A stretch of 64,000 nucleotides of DNA. Origin: an uncultured delta proteobacterium. GTDB taxonomy: Bacteria > Desulfobacterota > Binatia > UBA9968. Where the stretch lies: positions 523,070-587,069 of the forward strand of contig CAWFJP010000031.1 of assembly GCA_963816145.1 (NCBI GenBank). Reading direction: 5' to 3'. The notes under the pieces were generated by a model. That model was not told where the DNA came from. It did no database searches and saw nothing but the letters and a program-made list of their open reading frames with translations. Shown here piece by piece: positions 37,671 through 47,655 of the stretch; position 1 is the stretch's first letter, and every line of letters begins with the position of its first letter. A program made the translations under genes and the position numbers.

Positions 37671-40600
37671 TCAAATTTTACGCAAATCGAGGGTGAAGGG
37701 AAACTCCGGGTCGATGCGCGGCTCGCTAATTTCGATGATCCCCGGCGTGTGGCCGATGCGGAAGAAGCGCTCGAGACGGCGGCTCTCGGCTTCGAAAGCG
37801 TTGACGGGAAAGACCTCATAGCTGCGGCCGCCGGGATGCATGACATGGTATTGACAGCCACCGAGGCTCCGTTTCATCCAGCGGTCGACGATATCAAAGG
37901 TGAGCGGTGTGTGGACTGCGATGGTGGGGTGCAAGGCCGAGGGCGGCTGCCAGGCGCGATAGCGCACGCCGACCACGAATTCACCGACGGTGCCGGTGGA
38001 TTGCAGCGGCAGCGGCACTCTATTGCAGGTGATCGCATAGCGATCGGGCGGCAGTCCGGTGACTTTGACCTGCACTCTTTCCAGCGACGAGTCGACGTAG
38101 CGCGCGGTGCCGCCGGGGGCGCCCTCCTCGCCCAGCACATGCCAAGGCTCCAAGGCGGCGCGCAGCTCGAGCTCGATGCCACGGGTCGCGAAATCGCCGT
38201 ACTTGGGAAAGCGAAATTCAAAGTGCGGCGCGAACCAGCCGGCATCGAAGCCATAGCCGGCTTGATTCAGCTCTGTGATCACGTCTTGAAAGTCGAGCCA
38301 GACGAAGTGCGGCAGCATAAAACGGTCATGCAGTTCGGTGCCCCAGCGCACCAGTCGCGGCGGCGCGTAGGGGGTTTTCCAGAAGCGCGCGATCAGCGCG
38401 CGGATCAACAACTGTTGGGTCAGACTCATGCGCCCGTGCGGCGGCATCTCGAAGGCGCGCATCTCAAGCAAACCCAGGCGCCCGGTGGCGCTGTCCGGCG
38501 AATACAGTTTGTCGATGCAGAACTCGGCGCGATGGGTGTTGCCGGTGACGTCGATGAGCAGATTGCGCAGCAGCCGGTCAAGCAGCCAGGGCGGGCAATC
38601 TTGTTTCGCCATGCGCCGCTCCAACTCGCGAAACGCCACTTCGATTTCGCGCAGCGAGTCGTTGCGTGCCTCGTCGATGCGCGGCGCCTGCGAGGTCGGG
38701 CCGATGAAAAGGCCGCTAAAAAGAAAAGACAGCGACGGGTGATTGAGCCAATAGCTTAAAAAACTGCGCAAGAGATCCGGGCGCCGCAGCCACGGCGAAT
38801 CCGCCGGCGTGGCGCCGCCGAGGGCGAAATGATTGCCGCCGCCGGTGCCGGTGTGGCGTCCGTCGATCATGAATTTCTCCGTCGAAAGACGCGACTCGCG
38901 CGCCGTCTCGTAGAGAAACGCCGTCTGTTCGCTTGATTCGTCCCAGCTCGACGAAGGTTGAATATTGACCTCGATCACACCCGGGTCGGGGGTGATGCGA
39001 AAGTGCGGCAGGCGCGGATCGCGCGGCGGCTCGTAGCCTTCAAACAGAACCGGCTGATTCAGCGCTTCCGCTGTCGCTTCCACGGCGGCAACCAGTTCGA
39101 GATAATCTTCTAGGGCGGCGCTCGGCGGCATAAAGATGTAAAGCACGCCGTTTCTCGCCTCGGCGCAAATCGCGGTGCGCGAGATCCACGGCGCGCTCTC
39201 ATGCATGGTTGGCACGCGCTCGCTTGCACCGCCATTCTCCGTACCACCAGTACGCCGTACTGCTTCGTTGTCCGCGGATTTTGCCGCGCTAACTTGAAAA
39301 CGAATTTGCCCGTGAGTCGCAAGCGGTGGCAGCGGCTGGGTGGGATCCGGTGGAAAAATATAGGGGTAATCTGTGGCGCTGGTCCACGGCAGCGAGTCTA
39401 ACGGCAGCCGATAGCCCATGGCCGAGTCACCGGGAACGAGGTAGCAGCGCTCGCCGCGCAAAAACCACTGTCCGCTGCGCCAACGTTCGGTCGCGGGGTC
39501 GCGCGCCACCGGCAGGGCATAACCGACGACATAATTTAATCCTTGGTCGAACACGCGCATGAGACGCGCGCGTTCGAGCGGATCTTCGAGCCGCGAATCG
39601 AAGGGATCGACGTTGGCGGGCAAGCGCCGCTCGCGCCACATGTAGTAATACAAATCTTCGTAGGCAGGAAAAATATCGCGCGGGTTCAAACCAAGCCGTT
39701 GAGCCACGCCGCGGAGAAATTCGCCCGCAGTAACGTCGGTCGCTGTGTCGGCTTGGGTCTCGTCGGCGATCAAAGAGTCATCGCGCCAGATGGGCTCGCC
39801 GTCGGCGCGCCAGAAGCAATTGAGCGACCAGCGCGGCAGTTGTTCGCCGGGATACCATTTCCCCTGGCCGAAATGGACCAGGCTATGAGCGCCGTAGCGT
39901 GTGCGCAGGCGATGATAAACCTCGGTCGCGAGCCGGCGCTTGTTCGGTCCGAGCGCCGCCGTATTCCACTCCTCGCCCTCCGGATCGTCCATCGAGACAA
40001 AAGTCGGTTCGCCGCCCATGGTGAGTCTGACGTCGCTATCTTTCAGGTCGATATCGACAGCATGACCGAGTCGGTCGATCGCCTGCCATTGCTCCTCGGT
40101 GTAGGGTTTAGTGACGCGCGGCGCTTCCCAGATTCTTGTGACCGACATTTCATGGGCAAATTCTACTTTGCATTCATCGATCGCGCCGGTCACGGGAGAT
40201 GCCGATCCGGGTTCGGGCGTGCAGGCGAGCGGCAAATGGCCTTCGCCGGCGAACAAGCCCGAGGTCGCATCGAGACCGATCCAGCCGGCGCCGGGCAGGT
40301 ACACCTCGGCCCAGGCGTGCAGATCGGTGAAATCTTTTTCCGGTCCGGACGGGCCGTCGAGAGATTTCACATCGGCGGTGAGTTGAATCAGATAACCCGA
40401 CACAAAGCGTGCGGCCAAGCCTAAATGGCGTAGCAACTGGACCAGCAGCCAAGCGGAGTCGCGGCAGGAGCCCGAACCTTTGGCGAGCGTTTCTTCCGGT
40501 GTTTGGACACCCGGTTCCAGGCGGATCAGATATTTAACATCGCGCGCCAATTGCGCATTCAAGGCGACGAGAAAATCCACGCTGCGCCGCGGCTCGCGCG

Positions 40601-41003
40601 GGATCGCGCCGAGATAACGTTTAAACAGCGGCGTGAGCGGCTCGCGCTTGACGTAGGGCGCAAGCTCATTTTGTTGCCAAGACTCGTATTCGAAGGGGAA
40701 TTGCTCGGCATAAGGCTCAAGAAAAAAGTCGAAGGGATTGATCACCGCCATCTCGGCGACCAAATCGACCTCGATGCGAAACTCGTCGGTGGTCTCGGGG
40801 AAAACCAGGCGGGCCAAATAGTTTGCCTGGGGGTCCTGCTGCCAATTAATAAAGTGCTTTTGCGGCGCGATCCTGAGCGAATAACTCAAGACGCGGGTGC
40901 GGCAGTGCGGCGCCGGGCGCAAGCGCAGGACCTGCGGGCCGAGATTAATCCGCCGGTCATAGCGATAGTGAGTAACATGATGCAGCGCAACGTGGATGGA
41001 CAT
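37671..41003 (-). CDS. Transglutaminase fused to DUF2126 putative amidoligase
   Basis: MSIHVALHH start, GSCRDSAW, DLHAW; LTMGGEPTFVS, TPDPGVIEVN, GTGGGNH, EMRAFEMPP. Confidence 0.92.
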   Translation of the reverse strand: MSIHVALHHVTHYRYDRRINLGPQVLRLRPAPHCRTRVLSYSLRIAPQKHFINWQQDPQANYLARLVFPETTDEFRIEVDLVAEMAVINPFDFFLEPYAEQFPFEYESWQQNELAPYVKREPLTPLFKRYLGAIPREPRRSVDFLVALNAQLARDVKYLIRLEPGVQTPEETLAKGSGSCRDSAWLLVQLLRHLGLAARFVSGYLIQLTADVKSLDGPSGPEKDFTDLHAWAEVYLPGAGWIGLDATSGLFAGEGHLPLACTPEPGSASPVTGAIDECKVEFAHEMSVTRIWEAPRVTKPYTEEQWQAIDRLGHAVDIDLKDSDVRLTMGGEPTFVSMDDPEGEEWNTAALGPNKRRLATEVYHRLRTRYGAHSLVHFGQGKWYPGEQLPRWSLNCFWRADGEPIWRDDSLIADETQADTATDVTAGEFLRGVAQRLGLNPRDIFPAYEDLYYYMWRERRLPANVDPFDSRLEDPLERARLMRVFDQGLNYVVGYALPVARDPATERWRSGQWFLRGERCYLVPGDSAMGYRLPLDSLPWTSATDYPYIFPPDPTQPLPPLATHGQIRFQVSAAKSADNEAVRRTGGTENGGASERVPTMHESAPWISRTAICAEARNGVLYIFMPPSAALEDYLELVAAVEATAEALNQPVLFEGYEPPRDPRLPHFRITPDPGVIEVNIQPSSSWDESSEQTAFLYETARESRLSTEKFMIDGRHTGTGGGNHFALGGATPADSPWLRRPDLLRSFLSYWLNHPSLSFLFSGLFIGPTSQAPRIDEARNDSLREIEVAFRELERRMAKQDCPPWLLDRLLRNLLIDVTGNTHRAEFCIDKLYSPDSATGRLGLLEMRAFEMPPHGRMSLTQQLLIRALIARFWKTPYAPPRLVRWGTELHDRFMLPHFVWLDFQDVITELNQAGYGFDAGWFAPHFEFRFPKYGDFATRGIELELRAALEPWHVLGEEGAPGGTARYVDSSLERVQVKVTGLPPDRYAITCNRVPLPLQSTGTVGEFVVGVRYRAWQPPSALHPTIAVHTPLTFDIVDRWMKRSLGGCQYHVMHPGGRSYEVFPVNAFEAESRRLERFFRIGHTPGIIEISEPRIDPEFPFTLDLRKI

Positions 41004-41206
41004 GGTTTGAATTTTGTCGATCGATGGAGACTCAATGTAGAAGAAGGGCGGACCGGGTTCAAGCGGTGTCGTTCGAGCCGGCAGGCATCCGACAAAGTGC
41101 TGGTTGTAAGTTTTCTGTCCCAGCCGAGTTGCCGCGCAGGATAAGTTTAACGAAGGGATCGTCAAAAGCTCCACGTCGGCAAATTAAAACTTTAGGGAAT
41201 CTTAAA

Positions 41207-41416: not shown

Positions 41417-41502
41417 CGTAGGACGGCAAAGACGCTGCCGTTGTTACGGAGGTGGGACTGGGCGGCCGGCCCACCAGGGGTCATCATGGGGGAAAACGGA
41501 AT

Positions 41503-42825
41503 ATGGCCATCGAATCAGGTTCAAATCACCTAACACACGTTGGCATTGTCGTCGGCGGTGGTCCGGCGCCGGGAATTAACGGCACGATCGGCGCCGTAAC
41601 GCTCGAGGCCGGCAATCGGGGCCGCGAAGTCGTTGGCATCTACGATGGGTTTTCCCATTTGATGACCGGCTGCACCGAGCGCGTCAAAAAACTGCAGCAT
41701 GACGATGTTTCACGGATCCATTTCGAAGGCGGATCGATTCTCGCAACCTCGCGCGCCAACCCGACCAAGAATGGCGCCGATTTAGCGTGTGTCGTCGCTT
41801 CGCTAAAAACGCTCGGCATCGGCTACCTTGTCACCATCGGCGGCGACGACACCATGTACGCGGCGAGTCAGTTAGCGCAAGCCTCGGCGGGGCAAATCCG
41901 GGTGTGCCATGTGCCGAAGACCATCGACAACGATCTGCCGTTGCCTAGCGAAACGCCGACGTTTGGTTTTGAAACGGCTCGTCAATACGGTTTTGAAATC
42001 GTCCATAACTTAATGGAAGACTCACGCACCACCGGCCGTTGGTACTTCGTCGTCATCATGGGCCGGACCGCGGGCCATTTGACGCTGGGGGTCGGCAAGG
42101 CAGCGGGCGCGACGCTGGCCGTGATACCTGAGGAATTTCCCGGTCCCATCCACCTTGAAATGATCGGCGATATCTTGGAAGGGGCGATTCTCAAGCGCCA
42201 GGCGCTTTGGGGACGCAATGACGGTGTCGCGGTGATCGCGGAAGGATTGCTTGAACGGATGCCGGAACAAGAGTTGACGGCGATCGAGGGCGTGCAGATC
42301 CAGCGCGACAGCTACGGCCATCTGCGCCTGGCGGAACTCGATCTCGCCTATATTTTAAAGACCTTGGTGGAACGGCGCTTCGCGGCGCGCGGCCAGGGTC
42401 TGACAGTGGTGCATAAAACGGTGGGTTATGAACTGCGCTGCGCGCCGCCGGTTGCCTTCGATTGTGATTATGTCAAAACCCTGGGCTACGGCGCGGTCGA
42501 GTTTCTCCTCAACCCCGATCCGCTGACTGCAACCTTCGATGGCGCGCTGGTTTGTCTCATTGACGGCGAATTGCAATATCTCAAATTTGACGACCTGCTC
42601 GACGCCAAGACGAAAAAGACCACGGTGCGCACCGTCGACATCTCGAAGCCTTCATATAAAGTCGCGCGCGAATATATGATTCGCTTGGAGCGGGAAGATT
42701 TTGCAGATCCGCAAAAGCTGGAAAAATTGACGCGCGCCGCTTCGAGCAAAGACTTGCAGCTATCGTCGGAAGCCTTCAAACAGCGGTTCGAACCCGTCGT
42801 AAGCCAGCTTCTTGGAGGTTTTTAA
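41503..42825 (+). CDS. pfp: Pyrophosphate-dependent 6-phosphofructokinase
   Basis: GGGPAPG, GGDDT and PKTIDND (PPi-type Asp/Lys), MGR, GYELRC. Confidence 0.88.
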   Translation: MAIESGSNHLTHVGIVVGGGPAPGINGTIGAVTLEAGNRGREVVGIYDGFSHLMTGCTERVKKLQHDDVSRIHFEGGSILATSRANPTKNGADLACVVASLKTLGIGYLVTIGGDDTMYAASQLAQASAGQIRVCHVPKTIDNDLPLPSETPTFGFETARQYGFEIVHNLMEDSRTTGRWYFVVIMGRTAGHLTLGVGKAAGATLAVIPEEFPGPIHLEMIGDILEGAILKRQALWGRNDGVAVIAEGLLERMPEQELTAIEGVQIQRDSYGHLRLAELDLAYILKTLVERRFAARGQGLTVVHKTVGYELRCAPPVAFDCDYVKTLGYGAVEFLLNPDPLTATFDGALVCLIDGELQYLKFDDLLDAKTKKTTVRTVDISKPSYKVAREYMIRLEREDFADPQKLEKLTRAASSKDLQLSSEAFKQRFEPVVSQLLGGF

Positions 42826-42856
42826 AGCGTGGCCGAACCCTTGTCGCTGCGGGCCG

Positions 42857-43069
42857 TCAAAGCTCTCTTTTTGTCGCGACGTTTTTACTTGGCTTTCTTG
42901 CCTTGGATGGGATGGCCCGGCGTTTTTTTGGCGCATGGGTTTCCAGCCAAATTTCTTGGGCTTTCAGCCAATGCTGAACGTCGGCTCCGTCTGGGCACCC
43001 CGACTCCTGCCAAATTTTATATGCAAGTTGCCGGATCTCTTCGTTGCGATCGATCTGCGTCGCTTGCAT
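42857..43069 (-). CDS. DUF2934 family small protein
   Basis: IRQLAYKIWQESGCPDG....HWLKA. Confidence 0.85.
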   Translation of the reverse strand: MQATQIDRNEEIRQLAYKIWQESGCPDGADVQHWLKAQEIWLETHAPKKRRAIPSKARKPSKNVATKREL

Positions 43070-43198
43070 GACTCATGCTCCTTTCTCTTGGCTACAGGAC
43101 AAATTCAAATCGGTGTTTCTTCTGTGAACAACTGTCTGGAGGCGCAGCGGCGCTCTTGATTCAGCTGTCGGCTCCGGTGCGCCTATGAGCTTGACGGA

Positions 43199-44200
43199 TC
43201 ATTGCCATCCGGCCATCAAGCCGAGCAAATCGCAGACGCGGTTAGAGTAACCCCATTCGTTGTCGTACCAACTGAGACACTTGAGATACTTGCCGCCGGT
43301 GACCGTGGTAAATCCGGCGTCGAAAATTGATGAATGGGCGTTTCCTATAATATCCGAGGACACCACCGGGACTTCCACGAACTGCAGAATACCTTTCATG
43401 CGCTTGGATTCGGCGGCCGCGCGGATCTCAGCATGGACATCGTCAGCGCTCACGCTTTTCTCAAGTTCGACGAACAGGTCGACAACCGAACCGTCGGGCA
43501 CCGGCACGCGCGCGGCGATGCCGTCGAGCCGGCCTTTCAATTGCGGCAACACCATGCCGACTGCTTTGGCGGCGCCGGTCGAGGTCGGGATGATGTTTTC
43601 CGCCGCGGCGCGGCTGCGCCGCCAGTCCGAGTGCGGCACGTCGGCGAGCCGCTGGTCGTTGGTATAGGCGTGCACCGTGTTGATGACCCCCTCGACGATG
43701 CCGAAAGAGTCCTGCAATACCTTCGCCAATGGCGCTAGACAATTGGTGGTGCAACTCGCGTTGGAAATAATCCGGTATTCCGGCTTAAGTCCGTCATCGT
43801 TGACGCCGAGGACGACCGTGTAGTCGATCGCATCCTTCGCGGGCACCGTGAGCACAACCCGCTTCGCGCCAGCGCGCAGGTGCTGGGTCAGCTGTTCCTT
43901 GGCGGTGAAGATGCCGGTGGACTCTATGACCGCATCGATGCCGAGATCGTTCCAGGGCAATTTTAGTGGGTCCCGTTCACACAGCATCCGGGTACGGCCA
44001 TGGGAAGTAACCAAATCATCGCCTTCGAGCCGCAGGGTGCCGTCGAACGGACCCATGACCGTATCGTAATGGAGCAGGTAGCGCAGCGCTTCATTGTCAA
44101 AGAGGTCGTTAATCGCGACTACGTCAACGTCTCCACGCTTGTCGAGAATCCGGAATACCGTGCGGCCGATGCGGCCAAATCCGTTGATTGCGACTCTCAT
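43199..44200 (-). CDS. gap: Type I glyceraldehyde-3-phosphate dehydrogenase
   Basis: INGFGRIGR, SNASCTTNCL, TVHAYT, SWYDNEWGY. Confidence 0.96.
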   Translation of the reverse strand: MRVAINGFGRIGRTVFRILDKRGDVDVVAINDLFDNEALRYLLHYDTVMGPFDGTLRLEGDDLVTSHGRTRMLCERDPLKLPWNDLGIDAVIESTGIFTAKEQLTQHLRAGAKRVVLTVPAKDAIDYTVVLGVNDDGLKPEYRIISNASCTTNCLAPLAKVLQDSFGIVEGVINTVHAYTNDQRLADVPHSDWRRSRAAAENIIPTSTGAAKAVGMVLPQLKGRLDGIAARVPVPDGSVVDLFVELEKSVSADDVHAEIRAAAESKRMKGILQFVEVPVVSSDIIGNAHSSIFDAGFTTVTGGKYLKCLSWYDNEWGYSNRVCDLLGLMAGWQ

Positions 44201-45216
44201 TGCACACCTCCGACGCTATCGAGCTTGCCATAGTGCCGCACCACGTCGAGCACGCGGCAGGCATGACCCAAACTCTCGTACCAGGCCAGGACTTTGACGA
44301 TGTTTTTCCCGGCTTTGAGGGTTGCTTGCGCATCAAACAGTAAGGATTGCCGGGAGCCAATGACATCGGAAGAAACGATCGGATCATCGGTAATGCCGAT
44401 CAGCAGCGGATGACCGTTAGCGGCGGCCCGCATGGCCTCGTTTACTTGCGCCTTGGTCACGTCGCTGTCGTGCATCACGCAGTTCAGATCCAGCAACGAG
44501 CCCTGTTGCACCGGCACGTTGAGGGCATAGCCGCTTAGCTTTCCAGCGAATTTCGGCAAGATCAGCTCTACCCAATGCGCCGACTCATTGCTGTTGGGGA
44601 TAATGTTCTGGGCAGCGGAGCGACTGCGGCGAAAATCCTCGTGGGCATAATCCTGCAAAGATTGATCGCTGCTGTAAGCATGAACCGTGGTCATCGAAGC
44701 GTAGTCGACTCCCAGCGCGGCGTCGAGAAAATATAAAAGCAGCGCAAGCGCGTTGGTGGTTGCCGAACCAGCCGAGATCAGTCTGTCGCCACTGACCGCG
44801 CTCGCCTCATTGATGCCGGGAACCAGCACGCGGTCAATAGATTCCGCCGGCAGCGATGCGAGAATCACCCGGCCCGCCCCCGCTTGTAGGTGGGTTTCCA
44901 GATATTCACGGCGTCGATAACGGCCTGTGGCGTCGATAACGCAATCGACCCCGAAAACGTCCCATGGAACGTCCCCAGGTTTGGCAATCTGTAGCATCCT
45001 GGTGCGAAACTTATTGTTGACCAGATAATTGTCGTAGAGTTCGCACGGTGGTGCGTCGGCAGTGTCGCTCTTGAGGAGATAGTGGAGAATTTCTGGCTTG
45101 CCGATATCCGCCACCGCGACGATCTCAAGATCGTCGCTTTCCGCCGCAAGGTGATAGAGGTGTCGACCGATTTGCCCTAAACCCATAAGTCCGACTCGGA
45201 TCTTCCTGTTCAGCAT
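44197..45216 (-). CDS. GAPDH homolog lacking the catalytic cysteine (pseudoenzyme candidate)
   Basis: GLGQIGR, SAGSATTNAL in place of SNASCTTNCL, TVHAYSSDQ, RRSRSAAQNIIP; ATGA overlap with gap. Confidence 0.88.
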   Translation of the reverse strand: MLNRKIRVGLMGLGQIGRHLYHLAAESDDLEIVAVADIGKPEILHYLLKSDTADAPPCELYDNYLVNNKFRTRMLQIAKPGDVPWDVFGVDCVIDATGRYRRREYLETHLQAGAGRVILASLPAESIDRVLVPGINEASAVSGDRLISAGSATTNALALLLYFLDAALGVDYASMTTVHAYSSDQSLQDYAHEDFRRSRSAAQNIIPNSNESAHWVELILPKFAGKLSGYALNVPVQQGSLLDLNCVMHDSDVTKAQVNEAMRAAANGHPLLIGITDDPIVSSDVIGSRQSLLFDAQATLKAGKNIVKVLAWYESLGHACRVLDVVRHYGKLDSVGGVQ

Positions 45217-45419
45217 AGATTTTTCACCTGAGTTTCATCTACTTGCGGCCAAACATTTACCAGCGCTGGAACGCATTTACCCTCAGTTACGCCGCGAAAG
45301 TCGAAAACGCAGTCAAAAATGAAAAATTTGCAGTTTTCGAATTGCACCAGTCTATATGCGTTGCCATTGATAGTACTCGAAAGCAGGGAGAGTATCCAAG
45401 CGTTAGATTGAATCGTAAA

Positions 45420-45435
45420 TGCAAAGACCACGCCG
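45420..45435 (-). promoter_or_regulatory. Candidate sigma-54 promoter for the gap pair
   Basis: CGGCGTGGTCTTTGCA (GG-N10-GC), similar to the site at 56342. Confidence 0.45.
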
Positions 45436-45783
45436 TGGCAAAGGGCCTAAAGCTGACTCGATACGGTGGCGTTCCGCCGCTGTAGGCAACTCAAGATGCC
45501 CTAATACTGATCGCGGACTGCACAGCAGTTAGGCAGTGCGCGTGAAAATCGAGGGTCACATAGTGCTGGGTTCGGATTTTCCGAACCCCAGCACCATGTA
45601 GCCATTGGCGGAAGAGATTCTCGACAGGGAATCGGTGCACCCTAACCCGCTTCGAAGCAGTAGATAACGACGATTGTCGTGGCAGCCGTTCAAGTTAGCT
45701 GAAGAACCTCCATGCGGCAGTGAGCTTCGCGGTGAACTCTAGCGCGTTCTTTGACGCCGTAAAGGTCCGGTAGCCATGCGCGC

Positions 45784-47655
45784 TCATTCAGCCAGTGTGC
45801 GGATCTCAGCGTCGGCGCGGCGCAATTTTGCCGAGAGTTCGCGGGCAATATTGAGAATCAGTTTGTACTTGATCTGCGGGTGATCGAGCGCAAGGGCATT
45901 GAGCCTCTCGGTGGACAGGATATAGCAGACCACCGGCATATCAGCGACGACATCCGCAGATCGACGCCGGCCGTCGAGCAGCGAGAGTTCGCCAAAAGCC
46001 AATCCGGCGCTCAGTGAACTCAGCCGCTTGCCCCGGCTACCATTCGGCAAATTCAGATAGACGCTGACCGATCCGGCGGCAAGCAGAAAGAGCGAATCGG
46101 CCGAGTCACCCTCGTGAATAATCTTGTCTCTGGCACTGTAGTGCCGTTTTATCAACACCGATTCGAGCAAGGCGATCTCGGCGGCGTCCAGGCCGGCGAC
46201 GATATCAATCGCCGCAATCGGCACTGGGGCGTTGGTGCAGCTCAGGGCTGGACCCTCCTCGGCTATCAGCTGGCTTTCGCACCACTCCAGAGCCGCATCG
46301 ATATCGGCAAAGATGCTATCCGTTCCCCAGGGAGGGGTGGTGCGGTGTTGTAAATAAGCCGAATCGGCTTGCGGCAGATGCGCCAGGATTAGTTTTTTAT
46401 CATCTGCCGTGAGGGTGCCCCGCAATTGGACCAAAAGAGTCAGGGCGCAGTCGTCGATTTCCGGGACGCGCTTAAAATCGAGAATCAAATACGCTGCTGA
46501 ATCAATATCGTTCGTCATCTGGCGCAAGAGCCGCTCCATGGTCGCGAAAAACAGATTGCCCTGAAGTTCGTAAACGCAGATTGCCCGGCCTTTGCGGTTC
46601 AGGATGGCTTGTTCGGCGTTGCTGCGCTGAAGTTTCGAACGAATCCTGTCGCCCCGGTAGGTCCTGCGCACGGCCACCGCGGTGGACGCGCGGGTGCCAA
46701 ACATATGCAATTTGAAACGCTCGGAAATCGCTTGGCAAACTTGAATGCCCCGGCAACTATTACCCTGGGCATCGAGCAGCGGCGAATAGGTGCCGATGCC
46801 CAACTGGCCAGGTAACGCCGCGATGATGCCGCCGCTGACGCCGCTTTTGGCCGGTAGGCCGATGCGATAGCACCATTCGCCAGAGTAGTCGTACATGCCG
46901 CAGCTCTGCATCACGGCGAGGACGTTTTTGACGTAACGCGCCTCGATGGCGCGTACACCGGTCAACGGATTGATGCCATTGTTGGCGACCGTGGCGGCGA
47001 TCATGGCCAAGTCACGGGGACTCACCAGTATCGAACATTGCTTAAAATAGAGATCGAGATGTTCGTCCACCGGCTCGGCGATCATGCCGGCGTTGAGCTC
47101 GAGATAGCCGATGGCGCGGTTACGATGGCCGGTGCTGTGCTCCGAAGCGTAGACCGCGCGATCGATCTGCACCGGGCGACCGCAAAGATCGGAAAACTTG
47201 CCGAGTAGTCGCTCCAAACGCTCTGCATGATTGGCGCCGTTGATCAACGCGGTGGTGGCGATGGCGCCGGCATTGACCATTGGATTAAAAGGCCGGTTGC
47301 TGCGTTCGTCGAAAACAATCGAGTTAAACGCTTCGCCGCTGGGCTCGACGCCGACTTTTTCCAAAATCCGTTCGATGCCATTGTCTTCCAGGGCAAGCGC
47401 GTAAACGAACGGCTTGGAGATTGATTGAATGGTAAATAACTGTCTAGAATCGCCGACCTCGTAAATTTCACCGTCGGCGGTGGCCAGCGCGATGCCGAAC
47501 TGCGCGGGATCCGCCTTGGCAAGTTCGGGAATATAGGTGGCGATTTGCCCGGAGAAATTTTCCCGGTACTCGCGGTAAATTTCAAAGAGCGTGGTAAGAA
47601 TCGGCGAAAATGTAGTCTCGTCGGAGTCCAAGTTTTGGGCCAGTCTAGAGCGCAT
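45784..47655 (-). CDS. glsA: Glutaminase A with C-terminal STAS and cNMP-binding domains
   Basis: ATYIPEL, IQSISKPF, NPMVNAGAI, PAKSGVSG; ELQGNLFFA (STAS); FGELSLL...RSADV (cNMP). Confidence 0.92.
   Translation of the reverse strand: MRSRLAQNLDSDETTFSPILTTLFEIYREYRENFSGQIATYIPELAKADPAQFGIALATADGEIYEVGDSRQLFTIQSISKPFVYALALEDNGIERILEKVGVEPSGEAFNSIVFDERSNRPFNPMVNAGAIATTALINGANHAERLERLLGKFSDLCGRPVQIDRAVYASEHSTGHRNRAIGYLELNAGMIAEPVDEHLDLYFKQCSILVSPRDLAMIAATVANNGINPLTGVRAIEARYVKNVLAVMQSCGMYDYSGEWCYRIGLPAKSGVSGGIIAALPGQLGIGTYSPLLDAQGNSCRGIQVCQAISERFKLHMFGTRASTAVAVRRTYRGDRIRSKLQRSNAEQAILNRKGRAICVYELQGNLFFATMERLLRQMTNDIDSAAYLILDFKRVPEIDDCALTLLVQLRGTLTADDKKLILAHLPQADSAYLQHRTTPPWGTDSIFADIDAALEWCESQLIAEEGPALSCTNAPVPIAAIDIVAGLDAAEIALLESVLIKRHYSARDKIIHEGDSADSLFLLAAGSVSVYLNLPNGSRGKRLSSLSAGLAFGELSLLDGRRRSADVVADMPVVCYILSTERLNALALDHPQIKYKLILNIARELSAKLRRADAEIRTLAE

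Follow-up and report, generated by a model that had tools for sequence, protein, structure and literature searches.

A cysteine-less paralog overlapping a canonical glyceraldehyde-3-phosphate dehydrogenase gene: candidate for a non-catalytic partner subunit

Among the most studied of enzymes is glyceraldehyde-3-phosphate dehydrogenase (GAPDH), which in bacteria is taken to be a homotetramer. The specialised GAPDHs Epd and ArsJ-associated GAPDH use the catalytic Cys. In chloroplasts, two paralogous subunits, GapA and GapB, form one A2B2 heterotetramer in which one of them is regulatory; both are catalytic, and GapB carries a C-terminal extension with a pair of cysteines. Farther afield, passages of two papers on trypanosomatids (PMC6221367, PMC3663545) describe 'prozymes', dead paralogs under selection that activate AdoMetDC and deoxyhypusine synthase within hetero-oligomers and whose active partner is nearly inactive alone. 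The locus considered here lies in a 64,000-nucleotide stretch of DNA (the window) from an uncultured delta proteobacterium (contig CAWFJP010000031.1). It consists of a GAPDH paralog without the catalytic cysteine, called A below, and a canonical gap gene, B, whose start overlaps the stop of A. On balance, A would probably be the non-catalytic partner in a heteromeric GAPDH, made in step with B and assembling with it.

The list of open reading frames (ORFs) has the two genes in tandem on the minus strand, with A (44197-45216, 339 amino acids) ahead of B (43199-44200, 333 amino acids). At the junction, GGAGGTGTGCAATGAGAGTC, the TGA stop of A and the ATG start of B share four nucleotides (ATGA, 44197-44200), a signature of translational coupling, and a GGAGG resembling a Shine-Dalgarno site for B (44207-44211) lies 6 nt upstream of its ATG, within the last codons of A. 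GGAGG or GGAG occupies the same position in most of 71 printed junctions from related loci, as judged by eye rather than by count. Where B reads SNASCTTNCL (codons AGT TGC ACC ACC AAT TGT for S C T T N C, the TGC at 43751-43753 encoding the catalytic Cys150), A reads SAGSATTNAL (TCG GCA ACC ACC AAC GCG for S A T T N A), with Ala152 (GCA, 44761-44763) and Ala156 (GCG, 44749-44751) at the places of the two cysteines. The motifs GLGQIGR and TVHAY and the segment RRSRSAAQNIIP are all found in A. An earlier note on this DNA, made from its letters alone, had described such a SATTNA-type paralog with an ATGA overlap on an active gap, and its codons, motifs and intact frame all proved correct. It was right also that the alanines are no sequencing slip, since each replacement (TGY to GCN) requires at least two base changes and the motif is shared by relatives: 119 of the 120 closest in the database, 76-95% identical to A, read S[AT]GS[AP]TTNA[FL], and the 120th is unread there, the pattern having matched another site.

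By fold, A is a GAPDH. Both proteins match Pfam domains Gp_dh_N and Gp_dh_C (A at 2.2e-16 and 1e-41), and they are 39% identical to each other over 327 residues. Against TIGR01534, the NCBIfam model of type I GAPDH, B scores 420.9 bits, above the cut-off of 367.2, and A scores 262.5, below it. The AlphaFold2 model of A is a complete GAPDH fold (predicted local distance difference test, pLDDT, 88.4; predicted template modelling score, pTM, 0.88), and its top structural matches found by Foldseek are solved canonical GAPDHs, with TM scores of 0.84-0.90. All 60 listed sequence matches of A in the PDB are named GAPDH, and the one whose alignment was displayed (7jwk) has the Cys.

What A has lost becomes clear when 79 A-like and 72 B-like proteins from related loci are aligned. 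Residues are named here by the numbering of the Bacillus stearothermophilus enzyme, and we take them to have the roles (nucleophile, substrate-phosphate binding, general base, NAD site) usually given to them there. Cys149 occurs in none of the A-likes (Ala in 60, Ser in 14, Pro in 5), and Cys153 is replaced by Ala in 75 and Val in 4; both are Cys in 72 of 72 B-likes. Arg231, presumably the ligand of the substrate phosphate, is Asn in every A-like (by alignment Asn233 in A itself, codon 44518-44520) and Arg in every B-like. On the nicotinamide side, Asn313 is retained in 27 of the 79 (Ser in A) versus 71 of the 72, Tyr317 in 0 versus 71, and Arg10 in 11 versus 72. Thr208 and Gly209, retained in 72/72 B-likes, are hypervariable in the A-likes, and the 208-212 loop is altered in A. 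Gly12 is retained in 62 A-likes. The B-likes are canonical at each site read, apart from one row each at Asn313 and Tyr317.

Other parts of the protein are kept. Ser148, Thr150, His176 (His179 of A, codon 44680-44682), Arg194 and Arg197 are present in every protein of both sets, Arg195 in 78 of the A-likes and all the B-likes, and Gly7, Gly9 and Asp32 in 78, 79 and 74 of the A-likes and in all 72 of the B-likes. No stretch is more strongly conserved in the A family than the S-loop (residues 181-207 of A, 44596-44676, ending DQSLQDYAHEDFRRSRSAAQNIIP), with D184, Q185, R196, S198, R199, S200, A201, N204, I205, I206 and P207 as invariant columns. It is also the sole part that the monomer model leaves unplaced, with pLDDT below 50 over residues 184-204. 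To judge by these columns, A has lost the catalytic and nicotinamide half of the site and has preserved the adenosine half of the NAD fold, the anion pocket and the S-loop; such a protein would be incapable of acting as a thioester-forming GAPDH. A is not a functional type I GAPDH, because Cys149, Arg231 and a score above the family cut-off were each looked for and all three are missing. The earlier note, correct about both cysteines, had undercounted the lesions, passing over Asn at Arg231, Ser at Asn313 and the changed 208-212 loop.

The pair travels as a unit. Within the same genus, A is found in 19 of 24 other genomes, at 75-93% identity, and all 17 loci with both genes whole keep the four-nucleotide overlap while the flanking genes vary. 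The five genomes of the genus without A (completeness 60-99%) are also without an ortholog of B: in four of them the best match to B is 52-54% identical and of the housekeeping type, and the fifth (G007) has none. A and B have been gained and lost together within the genus. Among 16 genomes from other families of the same order, no protein matched A at more than 36% identity.

Outside the genus, one genome of each species was scanned, which gave 80 loci whose A-likes are 46-92% identical to A, and an A-like ORF was obtained from 79 of them, the 80th being truncated by the end of its contig. Directly behind the A-like stands a B-like gap in 79 of 79 loci. In 72 it is whole or nearly whole (442-714 bits to B), and in the remaining 7, where the contig stops less than 1 kb further on, the start of the B-like ORF is still visible. 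By the labels of their records, the carriers include metagenome-assembled genomes (MAGs) of delta-proteobacteria, Binatia and Syntrophobacteraceae; Halieaceae, Cellvibrionales and Pseudomonadales, among them Parahaliea aestuarii S2-26, which is in culture; and Neomarinimicrobiota, Bacteroidales, Lentisphaeria, Acidoferrum and a MAG of Clostridia. The genes overlap by four nucleotides at 54 of the 71 clear junctions, by one at 9 and by 7 or 10 at 2; they abut at 1 and are separated by 3-15 nt at 5. In 52 paired loci, distances among A-likes follow those among B-likes with r = 0.92, a value reached in none of 2000 Mantel permutations, some correlation being expected from shared phylogeny alone, and A diverges 1.5 times faster than B.

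Wide as this range is, the pair is patchy and rare in even samples of two phyla. In the sample of its own phylum, 8 of 301 genomes, this one (G000) included, match a profile of A at E <= 1e-90, and a close relative of A occurs in this genome only. Of the five regions fetched from that sample, two, from G239 and G107 of family f57, contain a gap gene together with a Cys-less partner more distant from A; two more genomes of that family, G269 and G299, have two adjacent matches to the profile. In a sample of Bacteroidota, a B-like protein (66% identical) was found in the centre genome only, the next best match being at 60%. The Protein Atlas returned only generic 'GAPDH' cluster names. Tandem GAPDH genes of another sort occur in a different family of the same phylum (L106 and L107, in G112 and G073): in these both members are canonical, with Cys149 and Arg231, an arrangement unlike that of A and B.

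More distant partners put the loss of the cysteine in a different light. In G239 and G107 the partner is 38-40% identical to A, with the motif SCGSSS and LNVPV at position 231, and the B-like gap to which it is coupled has 60-65% identity, with a four-nucleotide overlap in one case (L105). A metagenome scan made with a second subgroup gave 79 loci, 32 of them with two adjacent GAPDH-like ORFs. Asn231 marks the upstream ORF at 30 of these loci, Arg231 being retained at the remaining 2, where residue 195 is Leu, and the upstream residue 149 is Cys in 10, Ala in 9, Ser in 7, Ile in 2, Val, Asn and Pro in 1 each, and unread in 1. In the downstream ORF, Cys149 is present at all 32 loci and Arg231 at each of the 30 where that site is readable. 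The 47 loci with a single GAPDH are canonical in 45 cases, and the 2 with Asn231 stop at a contig edge.

The lesion common to nearly all the partners read is therefore the loss of the substrate-phosphate arginine, and the loss of Cys occurred in some branches only, that of this window included. The earlier note had treated the missing cysteine as the defining lesion, which does not hold for the distant partners: 10 of the 31 read have Cys149, lack Arg231, and still precede a gap gene. Since distant partners may keep the cysteine in this way, the change of Arg231 to Asn appears to be the older event, so far as an unrooted picture can indicate. Sister partners with both Cys149 (SNGSCTAHCA) and Asn231, directly upstream of a canonical gap, are found on several metagenome contigs (L109-L127, L161, L174). 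They could be intermediates, or perhaps partners with a different activity.

A is evidently maintained by selection. Across 16 loci of the genus (120 pairs), the median dN/dS by the method of Nei and Gojobori (NG86) is 0.096 in A, where values run from 0.036 to 0.151, and 0.062 in B; in 101 of the 119 usable pairs A has the higher value. Without one locus (L013, from genome G005) the medians are 0.093 and 0.062; G005 is also among the 19 carriers and the 17 overlapping loci of the genus, and no claim depends on it alone. A is thus under strong purifying selection. The same-genus copy at L023 (G018:C18:24514-28332) matches A in two pieces, with a frame shift near residue 48, and has a 25-nt spacer in place of the overlap.

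A quick, unrooted IQ-TREE analysis of 117 cluster representatives and the three GAPDHs of this genome places A within a starred set of 17 rows, 16 without Cys149 and 1 with it, that a branch marked 99* parts from the canonical GAPDHs. B lies inside the canonical part beside a representative 74% identical to it, and the third gap of the genome lies elsewhere again. A belongs to an old, separate clade, and an origin by recent duplication of B was rejected in view of the 39% identity and the separate clades. Two of the checks proposed in the earlier note, a search for homologs beside gap and an estimate of dN/dS, came out as it had expected, with Cys149 in 0 of 79 A-likes, an adjacent gap in 79 of 79 across phyla and purifying selection on A; its picture of A as a paralog of its neighbour is amended by the tree, in which a recent origin does not fit. 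The representatives in the tree include two giant proteins with a GAPDH domain, P0123 (2089 amino acids) and P0144 (1455 amino acids).

If A is a subunit, it should touch B, and a predicted contact was sought by co-folding the two proteins, with alignments of 52 rows each, three runs and three controls. The interface score (ipSAE) was 0.82 (runs at 0.82, 0.81 and 0.83), and the best of the three controls scored 0.00; of 157 solved complexes 116 come up to the mark applied, and of 215 mismatched pairs 2 do. At least 98% of contacts are shared between runs, and the partner has a pLDDT of at least 91. The modelled interface is pseudo-symmetric, pairing catalytic-domain segments within 172-310 of A and 170-309 of B, and includes S-loop residues 195-196, 199-200 and 203-207 of A. 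Conservation at the modelled interface is nearly the same in the two families (A 0.78, B 0.80), whereas elsewhere A is much less conserved (0.64, versus 0.77 for B); the difference between interface and remainder has p = 4e-5 in A and p = 0.47 in B, values that are overstated in that related sequences are not independent. The conservation of the interface and the S-loop left unplaced in the monomer fit a contact between A and B, as far as a model can speak to it.

In the reading favoured here, A, a paralog dead at least for the phosphorylating oxidation of glyceraldehyde 3-phosphate, and B would be produced from one transcript by coupled translation, and the two would most likely join in a mixed oligomer such as A2B2 by way of the usual interfaces of the catalytic domain and S-loop. 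There A might set the number and the cooperativity of the active sites, or might act as an effector-binding subunit; both roles are guesses. For such a role it could use what it has retained, the adenosine side of its NAD site (GxG, Asp32) and the anion pocket (Ser148, Thr150, His176, Arg195). The non-catalytic subunit of a heterotetramer proposed in the earlier note is supported in part: A is dead for thioester chemistry, selected and locked to gap, and a heterodimer model passes its controls, a pass that may stem from likeness to solved homotetramers. The heterotetramer itself, and the allosteric, NAD(H)-sensing or oxidation-protective part that the note would give A in it, are conjectural.

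Several considerations weigh against this reading. B looks fully competent alone. The co-fold may have passed through likeness to, or memory of, the much-solved GAPDH homotetramers, and as a model it is unable to distinguish an A-B pairing from A-A or from B-B. The interface segments are themselves derived from the model; since they border the former active site as well, a ligand pocket could be what keeps them conserved. The four residues of the anion pocket, kept in 78-79 of the 79 A-likes, go beyond what a pure scaffold needs, so that A could have its own chemistry or its own ligand. The copy in G018, in 1 of 19 same-genus carriers, reads as frameshifted, by decay or by assembly error. Nor was any convincing natural fusion of A to B found, with 1 match among 8000 long candidates. 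Two candidate fusions were rejected: P0271 (677 amino acids) is a single member with a garbled, Arg-rich linker, probably a frameshift, and P0126 is an unconvincing partial read-through from the C-terminus of A into the N-terminus of B.

The alternative that survives best, though still unlikely, is that A is a working enzyme, with chemistry that needs no Cys or with some other substrate, using NAD and the pocket of His176, Ser148, Thr150 and Arg195; oxidation of an alcohol or of a hydrated aldehyde is one example. A and B would then work in series and form no stable complex. An engineered Cys149Ala GAPDH reportedly oxidises its substrate slowly by another route. The pocket just described would suit this alternative (79/79 for three of its residues, 78/79 for Arg195), as would the preserved GxG and Asp32 of the NAD fold (Gly7 78, Gly9 79, Asp32 74 of 79). 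Asn231, in 79 of 79, looks like a fixed change rather than drift, and the distant partners that have Cys149 without Arg231 (10 of the 31 read) could have an altered substrate rather than be dead. A new enzyme, however, would hardly let residue 149 wander among Ala, Ser and Pro, and further out Ile, Val and Asn, or fail to keep the nicotinamide side (Asn313 27/79, Tyr317 0/79, Arg10 11/79) and leave the 208-209 loop hypervariable. No conserved third gene defines a pathway for it, and the four-nucleotide overlap suits subunits better than neighbours in a pathway, as does the strict pairing, one to one, with a particular lineage of gap.

It is improbable, too, that A stands alone as a regulator or buffer. 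In that case its own oligomer would bind NAD(H), an adenine nucleotide, glyceraldehyde 3-phosphate or 1,3-bisphosphoglycerate, or would moonlight, for example on nucleic acid, and the two genes would be expressed together for the sake of matched amounts. GAPDH paralogs are normally homotetrameric, which counts in favour of this possibility, as do the retained adenosine-side NAD motifs and anion pocket and the inability of the co-fold to separate A-A from A-B. It accounts less easily for the pairing, with no ortholog of B found without A in the genus and A never found without B (79 of 79 loci, and 30 partners with Asn for Arg231), and direct contact more readily explains both the co-divergence (r = 0.92) and a modelled interface that is conserved in A much as it is in B. 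That A is a decaying or neutral relic of duplication, or an artefact of annotation or sequencing, is scarcely credible. The copy in G018 does look frameshifted, but the remaining 18 carriers of the genus and the 79 A-like ORFs from elsewhere all have an intact frame, dN/dS is near 0.1, the same lesions recur across phyla, and each Cys-to-Ala change needs two base changes.

The surroundings of the pair bear on the pathway that it might serve. In the window it lies between a PFK-family gene (41452-42825, plus strand) and a glutaminase gene, just past which is a gene for a glucan phosphorylase. The glutaminase (45784-47655, minus strand, 623 amino acids, with STAS and cyclic-nucleotide-binding domains by Pfam) is the next gene upstream of A, across a gap of about 570 nt. 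Beyond the PFK-family gene, 37671-41174 (minus strand) encodes a protein of 1167 amino acids with transglutaminase-like N-terminal and core domains and a DUF2126 'putative amidoligase' domain. A Pfam survey of 109 neighbours at 25 loci turned up no third conserved gene beside the pair. Genes of sugar catabolism recur there: one for KDPG aldolase, which at two Cellvibrionales/Halieaceae loci stands immediately upstream, and those for glucokinase, 6-phosphogluconolactonase, GH57, GH77 and amylase genes with TrmB regulators, and phosphoenolpyruvate carboxylase. A glycolytic (catabolic) role of the pair would seem reasonable because such sugar-breakdown genes lie nearby.

That role would be played beside another enzyme. 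The third gap of this genome (337 amino acids, within locus L001, contig C29: 107325-110795) is fully canonical and of the housekeeping type, and the A-B pair is accessory to it. It lies between a gene for a CBS-domain protein and a second PFK-family gene, and the pair in the window likewise faces a PFK-family gene. In other phyla, five carriers have 3-5 GAPDH-family genes each.

Signs of expression are sparse. The matching RNA runs hold just 0.05-0.08 of the sampled words, and all the matches are contigs of soil or sediment metatranscriptomes. The pieces at 88% likeness fall mostly on conserved parts of B and may stem from other organisms. A few pieces are nearly identical to the window, at the 3' end of B (43114-43391, two differences) and, from sediment, upstream of A (45232-45453, two differences). 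No listed metatranscriptome contig spans the junction of A and B, a result that is uninformative on co-transcription either way. The upstream piece falls within a long non-coding stretch (45217-45783), which is maybe a long leader, or the match may reflect DNA in the library. A scan of 42700-45900 for promoters and terminators gave 2 promoter-like and 4 terminator-like sites, no excess over shuffled sequences (1.5 and 3.9).

A broader conjecture may be offered, more tentatively than the reading of A as a partner of B and rather doubtful as a whole: that in many bacteria part of glycolysis is served by an obligate two-gene GAPDH holoenzyme, in which an ancient partner lost Arg231, and later, in several branches, its cysteine. 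The partner would have become regulatory or architectural, its S-loop and its anion and adenosine pockets tuning the two remaining active sites. Such tuning might remove the cooperativity of NAD binding or add control by an effector.

If the partnership is real, a conserved dead paralog, present in several phyla, would be a new type of subunit in central carbon metabolism, and the quaternary structure and regulation of GAPDH in these phyla would depart from the textbook homotetramer. It would also be a bacterial instance of the prozyme principle, in a simple two-gene system with a cultured carrier, Parahaliea aestuarii. Annotation is affected as well: thousands of proteins now named 'glyceraldehyde-3-phosphate dehydrogenase' are unable to catalyse that reaction, and reconstructions of pathways that count them as gap are wrong. 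A heteromeric GAPDH with a non-catalytic partner is probably undescribed. The open-access full-text literature yielded no description of a natural Cys-less GAPDH partner in bacteria, and a paper in a subscription journal could exist. The relevant passages of a 2025 review of the aldehyde dehydrogenase superfamily (PMC12041015) concern ALDH16 and aldolase/AlDH complexes, not GAPDH.

Of the known systems, type I phosphorylating GAPDH (GapA; TIGR01534; EC 1.2.1.12; structures 7jwk, 1hdg and 1gd1) is the one that A most resembles in body. The two share both Pfam domains, length and fold (TM 0.84-0.90), and A retains GxG, Asp32, His176, Arg194, Arg195 and Arg197, but it lacks Cys149 and Cys153, has Asn for Arg231, does not keep Asn313, Tyr317, Thr208 and Gly209, and falls below the cut-off of the family. 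Nor is it one of the specialised bacterial offshoots, scoring 188.6 against a cut-off of 530.55 for Epd (TIGR01532) and 192.6 against 450 for the ArsJ-associated GAPDH (NF033735). The likeness to chloroplast GapA/GapB is loose: A is likewise one of two paralogs, but it is non-catalytic, and it has nothing like the extension of GapB, being 339 amino acids to the 333 of B, aligned from 6 to 326, with a tail, RHYGKLDSVGGVQ, that has no Cys. The trypanosomatid prozymes, so far as the passages cited above describe them, belong to other enzymes and another domain of life, and B, which looks fully competent, is unlike the subunit that depends on a prozyme. They are nonetheless the closest working analogy, with a dead paralog and purifying selection both found here and a possible assembly in the co-fold model.

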